Origin: Candidatus Thorarchaeota archaeon
GTDB lineage: Archaea; Asgardarchaeota; Thorarchaeia; Thorarchaeales; Thorarchaeaceae
Direction: 5' to 3'
DNA: 64,000 nucleotides
Assembly: GCA_016933575.1 (NCBI GenBank)
Contig: JAFGAR010000146.1
Location: 50,130 to 114,129, forward strand
Positions 52,983 through 58,408 of the stretch are shown here, in pieces (the first letter of the stretch is position 1; each line of letters opens with the position of its first letter). The notes under the pieces are model-generated. The model worked only from the letters and a program-made list of their open reading frames with translations. It did not search any database and was not told where the DNA came from. The translations under genes were made by a program, and so were the position numbers.

Positions 52983-53741
52983 ATGCAGGAGCGACTTGAA
53001 ACAGAACTCTATGCATCTATTGCAACCCTTGATCAATTGAAAAAGATGTTTGACCTTGGTGCTATTGACAATAGGTCATTCCAGAGAGAATCTCAGGCAC
53101 TTCTCCAAGAAGTACATCATCATATTGATAGTCTAAAACGTGTGGGTCTGGATATTAGCAAATTCATTACTGGTGAACAGATTACCGAAGCTTTTCCCGA
53201 TGCCGCTGACTTGCTTAGACTACGAGAATACCCTTCTGTACGATCGCTTCATGGAATGTCTTCAGATCAATATTATGACTATATTGGACTAGCTATTCTA
53301 GATGTTGCCACAGAACATGCATCTAAGGGTCTCATGGGTCTTGCTGAGTTAATTGTTGAAGTTGTAAGGTGTTTACCTGAATTAAAGACAGTAACTTACA
53401 ACGATGTTATTGAGGCGGTGAACCGAGTTGCTGAACATGGTCTTCTTCCAGGCATTCGAACACTTCGTGGCGGGGTGAAGGTTGTTGAGCTAAGGCCTCT
53501 GGAGCTACGTCGTGATCAAGCAGATGTTGTAAATCTTGCCGCCTCACGTGGGCATATCTCTGTTGAAGAAGTAATGATGCAACTGAAATGGTCCGAGGAC
53601 CACGCAAGACAGGTCTTAGCAAGCCTTGTTGAAACTGGCATGGCTGTTGCAGACATTCGTTTCTCAACTGGTGGAAGGTACTACTTCCCTGGTCTTCGTT
53701 CAAGAGATACCGCTGAGCCTCATGGTACTGGTCCATACTAA
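52983..53741 (+). CDS. ESCRT-II Vps22/Vps36-like (EAP30) tandem winged-helix protein with N-terminal Vps28-like helical hairpin
   Basis: YY..IG..I, GL..L.EL, D...A, P.EL..D...V..LA...G..S......L.W...A...L..L...G....D, YYFP match EAP30. Confidence 0.85.
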   Translation: MQERLETELYASIATLDQLKKMFDLGAIDNRSFQRESQALLQEVHHHIDSLKRVGLDISKFITGEQITEAFPDAADLLRLREYPSVRSLHGMSSDQYYDYIGLAILDVATEHASKGLMGLAELIVEVVRCLPELKTVTYNDVIEAVNRVAEHGLLPGIRTLRGGVKVVELRPLELRRDQADVVNLAASRGHISVEEVMMQLKWSEDHARQVLASLVETGMAVADIRFSTGGRYYFPGLRSRDTAEPHGTGPY

Positions 53742-54466
53742 GTAACTACGATAATTGCACCCCTCTTCTTATCAACCCACTCGGCAAATCCCTTCTCTAC
53801 CATGAGTGCCAAGACAATATAGAGGTCCTTTTCTGGTAATTTAGCAAAACTCTCCTCTGATTCTTGGATCACTATTGATTTCACATCAAGTCTTAGTTTG
53901 CCATGCTTCAATGCCCACTCATACAAGTAATCTGCCCAATCCTCTAGAGGTCTCCAGTAGACTCTTAGTTGCCTCTTTCGTTTGTCCATCCATTCGGCTA
54001 CTTCTTTGTCGATAAGAATCTGTACTATTATCTTAAAGGAATCTACCTTGTTTCTAAGATCCTTGAATGGTGGCTCACTGATGAATACAGACAATGAGAG
54101 AATATGGACATCATTATGTTCTGCCCATTGAAGTATGAAGTCCGCCCACTCTTCTGCCCAGAGGATCTTATCCTCCTCCCTTGAGGGTATGCCATACATC
54201 CACTCGCTCTCGATTGGTCCTCCCCAGGAGGGCATCAAAATCTCAAATTCCGTTGTCACTTCTTGAAGAGTTTCCTCAACTACTTGAGGTTCGGAGCTTT
54301 GGATATCTCTTGTTTCAGTAGTTTCTTTTTTTTCTACAATGACTTCTGGAGAGTGGGTCTGTTCCATAGTAGTTACCTTCTCAGGTACATCCACAGACTC
54401 TGTTTCTAGTGGTTCCTGAGAGACCTCTTTTTTTGACTTCTCTCTCCTCTTCTCTTTCATTCCCAC
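53738..54466 (-). CDS. ESCRT-II Vps25-like protein with acidic N-terminal extension
   Basis: W...IL.W, AEW.DK.K....V.WR..E.WA..LY.W match Vps25. Confidence 0.85.
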   Translation of the reverse strand: MGMKEKRREKSKKEVSQEPLETESVDVPEKVTTMEQTHSPEVIVEKKETTETRDIQSSEPQVVEETLQEVTTEFEILMPSWGGPIESEWMYGIPSREEDKILWAEEWADFILQWAEHNDVHILSLSVFISEPPFKDLRNKVDSFKIIVQILIDKEVAEWMDKRKRQLRVYWRPLEDWADYLYEWALKHGKLRLDVKSIVIQESEESFAKLPEKDLYIVLALMVEKGFAEWVDKKRGAIIVVT

Positions 54467-54469
54467 TCT

Positions 54470-55699
54470 TTAGGAACCCTCCGCCCAGTCAATGTATCTT
54501 CTGACATCCTCTGGGGGAGTAGCAGGTCTGATATTCTCAATAGCACTCAAGAAGTCATCCCTTGACACAGGTCGGATGTCTAAAATCTCTCTCTCATCAT
54601 CCATTCTTCCAGAACGCTGCAGGTCTCTTATTGGTTCCATAGATGCCTCTCTACAGACGATACTGATATCTCTCCCACTGTACCCCTCTGTGAGATCTGC
54701 AAGTTCTTCATAATCGACAGCTGGCGAGACCTCAATCTCTTCCATATGTATTTCCAGTATTGCCGCTCGTGCGGCTTTATCTGGTAACGGTACATGTAAT
54801 TTCTTCTCGAATCTAGACCTGAGTGCAAAGTCAATCTCCCATGGAAGATTCGTTGCTCCAATCACTGTCACTCTCTCATTCTGATTACTAGCAAGTCCTT
54901 GAAGTTCAGTGAGCAACTGTGTCTTCATTCGTCTCTCCCCGCCAACATCATCCCCAGAACGTGATACACCTATAGAGTCTAGTTCGTCGATGAATATGAT
55001 TGCTGGCTGATTCTTTCGTGCAAGTTCAAAGAGATGCATGACGAGACGCTCAGACTCACCAAGCCATTTACTTACAATATTAGCTGCTGACACATTGAAA
55101 AATGTGGCATTCACTTCGGATGCAACAGCTTTGGCGATAAGGGTCTTTCCACAACCAGCTGGACCATAAAACAGGATTCCTCTCCATGGCTGTCTTGCTT
55201 TTCCTTTGAATAACTCTGGATGTTTCATTGGTGTAATAATAGCATCACTGATTGCCTGTTTTGCATCCTGTAGACCAGCAACTTCTGACATCTTGATATT
55301 TGGCCGTTCAGAGATGATAGTATCTGATATCATTTCTCGGAGACGTTTTGTATCTTCATCAACATCTTGGTCCACAGATGTTTTTTGTCCAACTGAAACT
55401 GATTCTGCAGGACCAAAATCCGCCTTGGGTGGTTCTGTAAGACCATCTATTGGTCCTGCAGTCTTCTTTTTAATTCCTGAGAGAAATCTCACTCGATCTA
55501 CGCATTCCTGTGCTCGGTCGAAGTAATGTTTTCTGATTGATGGCAGCGATGCCGAATTTGACAATTTGATCAGAATCTTACTTGCCTTAAGGTAGAGCTG
55601 ACAAGCCTCGTTCTTAATCCCTCTCTGATCAAGTTCAATTGCTCTATCAAGTAGGCTCTTGAGGCCTCTATCCAACCGGTCATTATCTGATCCAGCCAT
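54470..55699 (-). CDS. vps4: Vps4 AAA+ ATPase (MIT + AAA)
   Basis: MIT: RAIELD..G...EA..LY..A; ERPN.K...VAGL..AK, PWRGIL.YGP.GCGKT, SKWLGESE, FIDE, GATN.PW. Confidence 0.95.
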   Translation of the reverse strand: MAGSDNDRLDRGLKSLLDRAIELDQRGIKNEACQLYLKASKILIKLSNSASLPSIRKHYFDRAQECVDRVRFLSGIKKKTAGPIDGLTEPPKADFGPAESVSVGQKTSVDQDVDEDTKRLREMISDTIISERPNIKMSEVAGLQDAKQAISDAIITPMKHPELFKGKARQPWRGILFYGPAGCGKTLIAKAVASEVNATFFNVSAANIVSKWLGESERLVMHLFELARKNQPAIIFIDELDSIGVSRSGDDVGGERRMKTQLLTELQGLASNQNERVTVIGATNLPWEIDFALRSRFEKKLHVPLPDKAARAAILEIHMEEIEVSPAVDYEELADLTEGYSGRDISIVCREASMEPIRDLQRSGRMDDEREILDIRPVSRDDFLSAIENIRPATPPEDVRRYIDWAEGS

Positions 55700-56204: not shown

Positions 56205-56822
56205 GTGAACATCGTGCCATCAATTAGAAAGGCGTTTGCTTGGGGAAAGAAGAAACCTGACATCGGTGAAGTTTCGAGCCGTCTGAGAATCCTCAGTAAA
56301 CAACTTGCTCGACAACGAAACAAACTCGAAAAGGAAGAACGTGACACACGGGCTCGAGCAGTGCGAGCACGAAAGGGTGGGCAAACGGATGCATATCGAA
56401 CCTATGCGATGGAGATGGTCCGATTTCGACGATATGCACTCTCTGTGGACAAATCACGCCTTCAGATCCTGAAGATTTTGGCACACCTTAATCGAGCACA
56501 GACATCAGCTAAGACGTCCCTTGCCTTACAAGAAGTAGCCAAAATATTAGGAATGCTAGGTGACTCGACTGATGCATCAAAAGTAGTAGCGAACGTTGAT
56601 GAAATTGCACGTCGTCTTGAAGAGTTTGAGATTGAATCTAGTATTTCCGACGAGGCTCTCGATTCCACCATGGAGATATCATCTGATGATCTTGATGATG
56701 CCCTAGCTGAAATAGATGCTGAAGCTGGTCTAGGCGAGGCTGCTCCAGTACGGAGACCAAAGAGTGAGATAGAGTCCTTAGAAGATGATATCAAATCTCT
56801 TGAACGCGAACTTGGGATGTAG
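56205..56822 (+). CDS. ESCRT-III (Snf7 family, Vps2/24/46-like class)
   Basis: Amphipathic N-terminus (IRKAFAWGKKK), basic helix 1, AYRTYAMEMVRFRR, acidic C-terminal half; start may be GTG 56214. Confidence 0.9.
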   Translation: MNIVPSIRKAFAWGKKKPDIGEVSSRLRILSKQLARQRNKLEKEERDTRARAVRARKGGQTDAYRTYAMEMVRFRRYALSVDKSRLQILKILAHLNRAQTSAKTSLALQEVAKILGMLGDSTDASKVVANVDEIARRLEEFEIESSISDEALDSTMEISSDDLDDALAEIDAEAGLGEAAPVRRPKSEIESLEDDIKSLERELGM

Positions 56823-56830
56823 ACCCAGAT

Positions 56831-58408
56831 TTACCTGAGTCGATCACGGGTATCTCTTGATTGACGTTCTAACTCTCTCCTATTATGGTAGGAGTCTCTC
56901 ATGAGATCTTTGTATCTTCGAATGAAGTCTTCAGTGACCAAACGTCCATCTCGTAAGAGGTGCACGGTCTCTCGAAGGGCCTGACGAATTGATTCTGCAT
57001 CCCTCTGTAGAGCATCAATAGACACTTGTGGTCGATATTGCGGATTATAGTCCCTATTCGGTTCACTTTGCCTTCCGAGAGTTCTTTCTAGTTCATCTCT
57101 GAAGCTATCTGGCGTGGCGTATCCCGCACCAAATGGAACATTACCCGTCTGATATCTTGGATGTGGCCATTGTTGTGGAGGACGTTCAAAACGTGTGTCT
57201 ACGGGTCGAGGTTCATCATGTTTTGAATTGGGCGAAAGTAGTGAATAGACCATCCCTTCAATCTTCAATCGCACATCGCTAATACTCATCTCTTCTTGCT
57301 CTAGCTTCCGAACTCGCTTCATATCCGTCTGAATATATCTCTCAAACTTGCGCGCAATCTCAATGTAGTCTGGTAATACCTTCTTCGTTTGGTCGCTGCA
57401 TGAGATCCTGACATCTCCCTGTTTGAGTTTGAGAACCAACCTCTTCCTCAAACGACCATCTTCCTCTAGTGACTTGAGATATATTAATGGAAAATCAAAG
57501 ATAACTTCCATTTTCCGTCTGACTCTTCCTGTTTCCGCGATTAGTAGAAGTCTCTTATTTGTGACATACAGAGTCCCAATCGCCTTGTCATTCTTCAAAA
57601 AGTCACTACCATTCACTTTCACATCTGGCAGAGCACAGACAGGCAATTCTCCTACTGCGAGCTGAGCATTATCATAGAAGTCTGTAAATTGATTCTTATA
57701 ATATTCAAGACCATCCAGTTGTCTTTTGACTTCCTTGAGTGTAATTCGAAGCGGTTCGAGCGCCTCGTCAACGTTTTGTTTGTAGTATATTCCCAATTCA
57801 GTTATACGATTAGTGATACCTTCAATGAACGGAAACTGCGATGGATTCCATCTAGTATAGTCAACAAAGTTCTTAGTTTCTGCAGCCATTCTGCGAGCTA
57901 CTATCTCAGCCTGATTTCCAATCCGATTCTTCAGAGCAGGCAATTCCTCTTGGATCGCCTCAATTTTTTCTTCCAACCATCGATAGTGGAGGAAGTTCGC
58001 CATTCTCAGAGAAACCAACAGCCTCTTTGTTACTGTCAGTTTATTATTGAACTCCCGGAGTTTTGTATGACCATATTGAATGTTCATTATAGAGTGACGC
58101 ATCTCAAGGGCTAGTTTTCTTCTTTTATCCTCCAGTATCTCAACACGAGACGAATGACATGTAGGACAAATATCCACAGTACGTCTTCCTTTGGTGAGAT
58201 TCTCTGACTCACACTCCGGACAACGTTCGAATTTCTCCCCTGGAATCGGTTCTCCTAAAGAATGGTGGCAGTTTCCACAGACGATGTACTCATTTGACCT
58301 ATTATCAAGGCAGTCTGAACAGAGTACCATTCCACAGTCTTCACAGATGTGCGTAGCTCTATTGTTCTGACAGGACTTGCATCTCTCAAGTGTAGAATCT
58401 TCTGTCAT
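56831..58408 (-). CDS. Zn-finger (B-box-like) / coiled-coil / PH(GRAM-GLUE-like) / steadiness-box-like multidomain protein
   Basis: Multiple CxxC pairs; GTLYVTNKRLLL PH strands; C-terminal LRDGRL..EDFIRRYKDL...YH.RR. Confidence 0.7.
   Translation of the reverse strand: MTEDSTLERCKSCQNNRATHICEDCGMVLCSDCLDNRSNEYIVCGNCHHSLGEPIPGEKFERCPECESENLTKGRRTVDICPTCHSSRVEILEDKRRKLALEMRHSIMNIQYGHTKLREFNNKLTVTKRLLVSLRMANFLHYRWLEEKIEAIQEELPALKNRIGNQAEIVARRMAAETKNFVDYTRWNPSQFPFIEGITNRITELGIYYKQNVDEALEPLRITLKEVKRQLDGLEYYKNQFTDFYDNAQLAVGELPVCALPDVKVNGSDFLKNDKAIGTLYVTNKRLLLIAETGRVRRKMEVIFDFPLIYLKSLEEDGRLRKRLVLKLKQGDVRISCSDQTKKVLPDYIEIARKFERYIQTDMKRVRKLEQEEMSISDVRLKIEGMVYSLLSPNSKHDEPRPVDTRFERPPQQWPHPRYQTGNVPFGAGYATPDSFRDELERTLGRQSEPNRDYNPQYRPQVSIDALQRDAESIRQALRETVHLLRDGRLVTEDFIRRYKDLMRDSYHNRRELERQSRDTRDRLR

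Follow-up and report, generated by a model that had tools for sequence, protein, structure and literature searches.

A Vps28-type N-terminal domain joined to Vps22 in the ESCRT locus of a Thorarchaeota archaeon

The ESCRT locus

The window, that is, the whole stretch of 64,000 nucleotides analysed here from a Candidatus Thorarchaeota genome (contig JAFGAR010000146.1), contains a compact ESCRT locus which begins with the ORF at 52983-53741 (Table 1). The residues quoted in an earlier description made from the letters of the sequence alone (the sequence-only reading) are present in this ORF. The 3'-end of vps25, which lies on the opposite strand, overlaps the stop of the fusion gene by 4 nt, and Vps25 would be expected to pair with the winged helices of the fusion protein. 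The Vps25 homologue carries an acidic, low-complexity N-terminal extension of around 100 residues ahead of its winged helices, and the Pfam ESCRT-II match covers only residues 105-191.

Table 1. Features of the ESCRT locus and of the fusion protein, with positions in the window
Feature	Position	Strand	Remarks
Vps28-N::Vps22 fusion gene	52983..53741	+	252 aa ORF; Asgard-type 'Vps22 fused to SB'
Vps28-type N-terminal domain, residues 1-80	52983..53222	+	hhalign, phmmer, AF2 and PDB fold matches
Linker at the fusion joint, residues 81-93	53223..53261	+	Variable, probably disordered; poorly conserved columns
Vps22/EAP30 tandem winged helices, residues 94-239	53262..53699	+	WH1 94-170, WH2 177-234; Pfam EAP30
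Vps25 (ESCRT-II)	53738..54466	-	Pfam ESCRT-II PF05871 1.8e-15
Vps4 AAA ATPase (MIT + AAA + Vps4_C)	54470..55699	-	Pfam
ESCRT-III subunit, Snf7 family	56205..56822	+	Pfam Snf7 2.4e-12
525-aa Zn-ribbons/coiled coil/PH/steadiness-box protein (Znr_PH_CC_SB of Makarova 2024)	56831..58408	-	
C-terminal steadiness-box hairpin, residues 446-525 of the 525-aa protein	56834..57073	-	

The winged-helix body

Residues 95-239 of the fusion protein are collinear with residues 95-239 of human SNF8/Vps22 (3cuq_A and 2zme_A, E ~1e-15). Furthermore, Pfam EAP30 (PF04157) was matched with 48.5 bits (1.2e-12), exceeding its cut-off of 26.8. The sequence-only reading had called residues 95-240 EAP30/Vps22-like, and both matches bear this out. 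The AlphaFold2 model, for which 22 homologues were used (pLDDT 81), contains the two winged helices, and the best PDB structures for the whole model were 2zme_A (Foldseek 8.4e-10), 3cuq_A and 1u5t_A (6e-7). Residues 82-89 of the linker have a pLDDT below 50, and winged helix 1 follows directly after the 13 linker residues.

Regarding the region ahead of the winged helices, the EAP30 profile was matched from position 57-61 in the fusion, as against position 1-2 in the canonical Asgard Vps22, and a comparison by hhalign with 16 canonical Vps22 N-termini (1.2%) did not find their helical domain in the fusion.

The N-terminal domain

Residues 1-80 are a Vps28-type N-terminal (headpiece/steadiness-box) domain. 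When residues 1-94 are modelled by themselves with AF2 (pLDDT 87 overall and 92-98 in residues 1-80), a helical hairpin (2-24 and 30-54) is followed by short helices at 58-64, 67-70 and 72-78. The motif of helix 1, ELYASIATLDQLKK, is nearly invariant in the 19 Thorarchaeota homologues compared. Matched directly with Pfam VPS28 (PF03997), residues 8-63 aligned to positions 3-60 of the 188 of the profile with 13.7 bits (E 0.054), a score that does not reach the whole-protein cut-off of 24.5 bits.

The phmmer search of 1.84e9 representative proteins found, apart from relatives of Vps22, five proteins of 202-252 aa whose match was confined to residues 4-104 of the query (E 4e-6 to 9e-5). Four of these five passed Pfam VPS28 over the full profile (40-55 bits) and the fifth was slightly under it with 22.5 bits; the named members of their clusters come from Odin- and Heimdallarchaeota. 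One cluster member (MBR51737.1, in the P0269 cluster) is labelled Gammaproteobacteria bacterium in NCBI, the others being archaeal/Heimdallarchaeota, and this is probably a mis-binned contig.

Three profiles were compared by hhalign: the N-domain (A2, ten sequences), the Asgard Vps28 proteins (A3, five sequences) and the canonical Vps22 N-termini of Asgard archaea and eukaryotes (A4, 16 sequences). The N-domain matched the Vps28 proteins with 99.4% (E 1.5e-21) over 82 columns, query residues 5-86, at 33% identity, whereas its match to the canonical Vps22 N-termini was the 1.2% given above. The 16 canonical N-termini are clearly collinear among themselves, and they matched Vps28 with 0.2%. When the A2 profile was searched against the PDB sequences, the top ranks went to four chains of yeast Vps28 (E 0.006-0.007).

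Whole-protein Foldseek could not separate the N-domain, as the N-terminal helices were laid onto those of Vps22 with an rmsd of 8-10 A, and hence residues 1-94 were searched alone. The top 12 matches of this PDB fold search were chains of 6vme and the Vps28-N chains 2f6m_B/D, 2caz_B/E, 2p22_B and 2f66_B, with TM 0.45-0.72 and an rmsd of 2.3-2.4 A over 83 columns; the Vps23-C hairpins rank next. The Foldseek E values were weak (0.09-1), which is expected for a helical domain of 80 residues, and therefore the fold match is corroboration and the main evidence lies elsewhere. The chains of 2f6m, 2caz, 2p22 and 2f66 are named Vps28 in the PDB sequence search, and the matching chains of 6vme, the human ESCRT-I headpiece, are judged by their length to be Vps28 as well. 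The proposal of the sequence-only reading that residues 1-85 follow the Vps28 core thus agrees with the hhalign result, with the Vps28 proteins found by phmmer and with the yeast Vps28 chains, and the domain has a match to Vps28 both in profile (99.4%) and in structure (TM up to 0.72).

That reading was also right in taking the C-terminal domain of Vps28 to be absent. The Vps28 alignment stops at query residue 86, residues 94-239 form the winged helices, and the linker of 13 residues keeps no remnant of Vps28-C or of the Vps22 N-helix. As this short disordered linker runs directly to winged helix 1, the C-terminal four-helix bundle is absent. Therefore, with Vps28-C missing and winged helices at 94-239, the fusion protein as a whole is not an orthologue of Vps28.

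Distribution among Asgard archaea

We found 136 homologues at E<=0.001. Among the matches listed (the best 120), most have 245-275 aa and some are shorter or longer, and the named homologues among them all come from Thorarchaeota/Promethearchaeota MAGs. Full-length profile matches were found in 84 of the 85 genomes of the same family, and, within the same order, also in a sister family. The fusion architecture is fixed in this Thorarchaeota family.

Beyond Thorarchaeia, the same type of fusion was found in only a few clusters at 50% identity, namely P0123 (no lineage), P0129 (Ranarchaeia) and P0132 (Odinarchaeia). Most Asgard Vps22 proteins have the canonical N-terminus, collinear with eukaryotic Vps22. 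From the phylum set of 400 genomes, ten genomes of ten other Asgard families were taken as a sample, and each of them gave one match of the Vps28-N type, none of which lies inside a Vps22. Eight of these matches are in open frames of 211-232 aa and two in longer ones (314 and 489 aa). The frame of 489 aa (L061, match at G015:C1:1595508-1595756) may be a UEV-Vps23-Vps28 fusion like that of Heimdallarchaeota.

A second paralogue of EAP30 type was observed in other Thorarchaeota genomes, at the C-terminus of proteins of ~780-860 aa (G353:C45, G313:C1 and G348:C337), and many representatives of ~760-790 aa were also among the phmmer matches to the fusion. This paralogue, which is a possible stand-in for Vps36, was not found in the genome of the window, which is 85.5% complete.

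Searches for a separate Vps28 or Vps23

Over its cut-off, PF03997 was matched in none of the 41 family genomes with a completeness of at least 90%, nor in the genome of the window. Several weak PF03997 matches in the family genomes were actually the N-terminus of Vps22 itself. Regarding the Vps23 core (PF09454), the genome of the window gave only matches at noise level, as the bacterial controls did. Given the completeness of this genome, a missing separate Vps28 or Vps23 says little there by itself.

The only other PF03997 match of this genome (12.8 bits, profile positions 54-143) falls in a helical ORF of 280 aa (L002, G000:C160:1679-4942). At that locus, a C-terminal fragment of an AAA ATPase is followed downstream by two helical or coiled-coil ORFs, one of 219 and one of 280 aa. 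The match is probably noise, although the 280-aa ORF could be a Vps28-C-like module. The weak PF03997 matches in ORFs of ~415 aa of the relatives, which resemble long coiled coils, are probably noise too. A PDB chain that we take to be Vps28-C, 2J9U_A, is matched by the Vps28-like region of a BAR-domain protein that Makarova et al. list for Thorarchaeota (PMC10936438), and the ORFs of 280 and ~415 aa could instead be related to that protein.

A candidate partner in the same locus

The 525-aa protein at the end of the locus gave weak Pfam matches to B-box/zinc-ribbon and Mod_r families and is conserved in Thorarchaeota. In three other named assemblies, its gene is four genes from the Vps22 gene according to the locus tags. 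The tail of the protein is steadiness-box-like: among 16 homologues, seven matched Vps23_core (best 3e-4) and seven matched Mod_r, and the hairpin at residues 446-525 is the sole match in the genome to its hairpin profile.

The complex model of residues 1-94 of the fusion with this hairpin, a check that the sequence-only reading had proposed, gave a score of 0.86 against 0.01 for the best control, although likeness to the solved Vps23-C:Vps28-N structures may contribute to it and the pass may reflect that likeness and not binding of the modelled pair. Of 80 solved complexes, 58 reach this mark, as do 2 of 110 mismatched pairs, although these counts apply only roughly here, since the pair was modelled with alignments of our own. 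Contact agreement among the runs was 100% and the partner had a pLDDT of at least 77. The modelled interface sets residues 3-40 of the fusion, that is, the invariant helix 1 together with the beginning of helix 2, against residues 482-511 of the partner.

On this model, the 525-aa protein is a candidate ESCRT-I-like partner, and the fusion would provide a covalent link from ESCRT-I to ESCRT-II. Other authors have described the Znr_PH_CC_SB family as a likely ESCRT-I component (PMC10936438), and in Lokiarchaeota steadiness-box proteins contact Vps22 in Y2H (PMC9192718).

Comparison with known systems

In eukaryotes, the C-terminal domain of Vps28 joins ESCRT-I to ESCRT-II non-covalently, through Vps36, and its four-helix bundle contacts ESCRT-II/Vps20. 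Compared with the eukaryotic Vps28 (yeast 2F6M, 2CAZ, 2P22 and 2F66; human 6VME), the N-domain of the fusion has the same fold and a detectable sequence similarity. However, the fusion lacks the four-helix bundle, has the winged helices of Vps22 instead and stays below the Pfam VPS28 cut-off. In the model, helix 1 of the fusion would face a hairpin of Vps23/Vps37 type, as happens in the ESCRT-I headpiece. With the canonical Vps22/SNF8 (3CUQ, 2ZME, 1U5T) the fusion has the tandem winged helices in common, and its gene is near vps25, vps4 and an ESCRT-III gene. What differs is the N-terminal helical domain, which in eukaryotic Vps22 packs on Vps36 and includes a basic helix for membrane binding, and which has been replaced in the fusion (hhalign 1.2%).

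The UEV-Vps23-Vps28 fusion of Heimdallarchaeota (Hatano et al. 2022, PMC9192718) likewise unites in one polypeptide ESCRT-I modules which eukaryotes have as separate proteins, but it does not extend beyond ESCRT-I and retains the Vps28 core, whereas the fusion of Thorarchaeota spans from ESCRT-I to ESCRT-II and has lost Vps28-C. The ESCRT proteins of Thorarchaeota were examined by Y2H in the same study.

The Vps28-N::Vps22 fusion is correct but was already published in 2024. Makarova et al. (2024, mBio, PMC10936438) wrote that Asgard 'Vps22 family proteins ... are fused to an SB' (asCOG cog.002769), and their Table S3 gives residues 1-70 of the Thorarchaeota Vps22 KXH75178.1 as 'VPS28 protein (N-terminal domain - SB)', with an HHpred match to PF03997 of 99%. 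That protein belongs to the same lineage and has the same architecture, and the present gene is another member of the group, with nothing essential different. Their wording ascribes the fusion to the Asgard Vps22 proteins as a family and the evidence they list is a Thorarchaeota protein, whereas we found that most other Asgard Vps22 proteins are canonical, with a separate full Vps28 adjacent. That paper gives no model of the hairpin pairing, and it apparently mentions neither an origin by deletion, nor a confinement of the fusion to a small number of lineages (Thorarchaeia, Ranarchaeia and some Odinarchaeia), nor a specific partner.

Our additions to the published description are the contrast between the fusion and the canonical Asgard Vps22, the adjacency of vps28 and vps22, and the modelled partner. 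The value of the gene at 52983-53741 is thus confirmation together with a sharper hypothesis for the origin and the partner of the fusion.

Alternative explanations

Residues 1-90 might be just the ordinary N-terminal helices of Vps22/Vps36, in which case there would be no fusion and the likeness to Vps28 would be that of a generic helical hairpin. The layout and length of the protein are indeed those of a normal Vps22, as the collinearity of residues 95-239 with the same residues of human Vps22 indicates, and when the whole model was aligned by Foldseek to 2zme_A and 1u5t_A, 241-248 columns were covered, N-terminal helices included. Hatano et al. also superposed the N-terminus of a Heimdallarchaeota Vps22 on Vps22/Vps36 of 3CUQ (PMC9192718). 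However, an ordinary N-terminus was rejected on the profile comparison (1.2% between A2 and A4, as against 99.4% to Vps28, and 0.2% between A4 and Vps28). The late start of the EAP30 match, at 57-61 and not at 1-2, and the rmsd of 8-10 A for the whole model versus 2.3-2.4 A for the N-domain on Vps28-N point the same way, and we consider this explanation very improbable. The least probable explanation of all is an artefact, in which a frameshift, a mis-assembly or a chimeric contig joined vps28 and vps22. In other Asgard lineages these genes are neighbours that run in the same direction, which is the arrangement that a mis-join would mimic. Nevertheless, over 100 protein clusters, drawn from independent assemblies and in some cases from contigs as long as 3 Mb, share the architecture of 245-275 aa, and so do 84 of the 85 family genomes; the linker of 13 residues has no remnant of Vps28-C or of the Vps22 N-helix, and purifying selection on the N-domain is strong. 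An artefact is effectively ruled out because the fusion recurs across assemblies.

The role of the domain could also be self-association, with the Vps28-like domain as the stalk of a Vps22 dimer in an ESCRT-II that lacks Vps36, and not ESCRT-I-like docking. The Vps22 of Thorarchaeota interacts with itself in Y2H and Vps36 is reported to be absent from Asgard archaea (Hatano et al. 2022, PMC9192718). Furthermore, the steadiness-box hairpins are paralogous and able to form homotypic assemblies, and the ESCRT-I of Odinarchaeota has two Vps23 per Vps28 (PMC9192718). We regard self-association as the sole role as improbable, given that the heterotypic model with the steadiness-box tail was confident and specific against the controls (0.86 versus 0.01), that the canonical Vps22 of Heimdall- and Lokiarchaeota interacts with itself too and self-association thus needs no Vps28-N (PMC9192718), and that the ~780-aa EAP30 paralogue of other Thorarchaeota could act as Vps36. 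Self-association and docking of a partner could actually be compatible roles of the same domain.

Proposed mechanism

With good confidence, then, we read the gene as a Thorarchaeota Vps22 that has a Vps28 headpiece in place of its own N-terminal helices and lacks the Vps28 bundle; for it we infer an origin by deletion and fusion and a mechanism based on docking of the hairpin. The winged-helix body would form ESCRT-II together with Vps25, and the ESCRT-II so assembled would recruit ESCRT-III and Vps4. On the other side of the protein, the Vps28-type hairpin is predicted to pack on the steadiness-box hairpin of the Zn-ribbon/PH neighbour, in the way that Vps28-N packs on Vps23-C in the eukaryotic ESCRT-I headpiece. 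In this manner, an ESCRT-I-like adaptor that binds membrane or cargo would be tied to ESCRT-II by one polypeptide, which would replace the non-covalent contact made by Vps28-C.

The handover from ESCRT-I to ESCRT-II bears on how the eukaryotic sorting machinery was assembled out of archaeal parts, and a natural join of a Vps28 headpiece with Vps22 suggests that both complexes were coupled already in Asgard archaea. The fusion and the Zn-ribbon/PH steadiness-box protein would also make a simple two-protein system for reconstitution.

Origin of the fusion

In four other Asgard families, a full-length vps28 lies directly upstream of vps22, co-directed and either abutting or a few hundred nt apart. 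Three of them (G007, G308 and G002) show the order UEV-Vps23, full Vps28 and canonical Vps22 according to Pfam, with a gap between vps28 and vps22 of 0 to ~300 nt. In the remaining one (G100), Vps28 is directly upstream of an ORF of 244 aa that matches the Vps22 profile, an assignment that comes from the profile match alone. In addition, the first ~90 residues of Vps28 and the last ~160 residues of Vps22 add up to the observed 250 aa.

A fusion was also found in order with other ESCRT genes in an Odinarchaeia MAG (GCA_054383955.1, JBQSCW010000006.1; L068). Ubiquitin, a RING finger protein, a coiled-coil protein of 145 aa and UEV-Vps23 open this locus, and the fusion P0132, a protein of 266 aa, Vps25, Vps4 and two Snf7 genes follow.

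The adjacency of vps28 and vps22 in the other families and the gene order of the Odinarchaeia locus therefore make an in-frame deletion across the junction of the two co-directed genes the simplest origin, one that would have taken out Vps28-C and the N-helices of Vps22. We can go one step further and propose that one single deletion removed exactly these two parts, and hence that in Asgard archaea they were the ancestral non-covalent contact of ESCRT-I with ESCRT-II, with the Vps28 hairpin docking the Zn-ribbon/PH adaptor in Thorarchaeota, which are without ubiquitin and UEV-Vps23. This wider proposal is tentative, and we judge it plausible but slightly on the improbable side. If true, the gene would be a 'Rosetta stone' fusion, and Thorarchaeota would have a ubiquitin-independent route of two proteins from the membrane to ESCRT-II.

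Regarding the details of the Odinarchaeia locus, the 266-aa protein that follows the fusion matched no Pfam family and had no similarity to Vps28. The Odinarchaeia fusion has 299 aa and its linker is ~60 aa longer. Contrary to Thorarchaeota, there the fusion coexists with ubiquitin and UEV-Vps23, and the Odinarchaeia locus has two adjacent ESCRT-III genes, whereas the Thorarchaeota locus has a single one.
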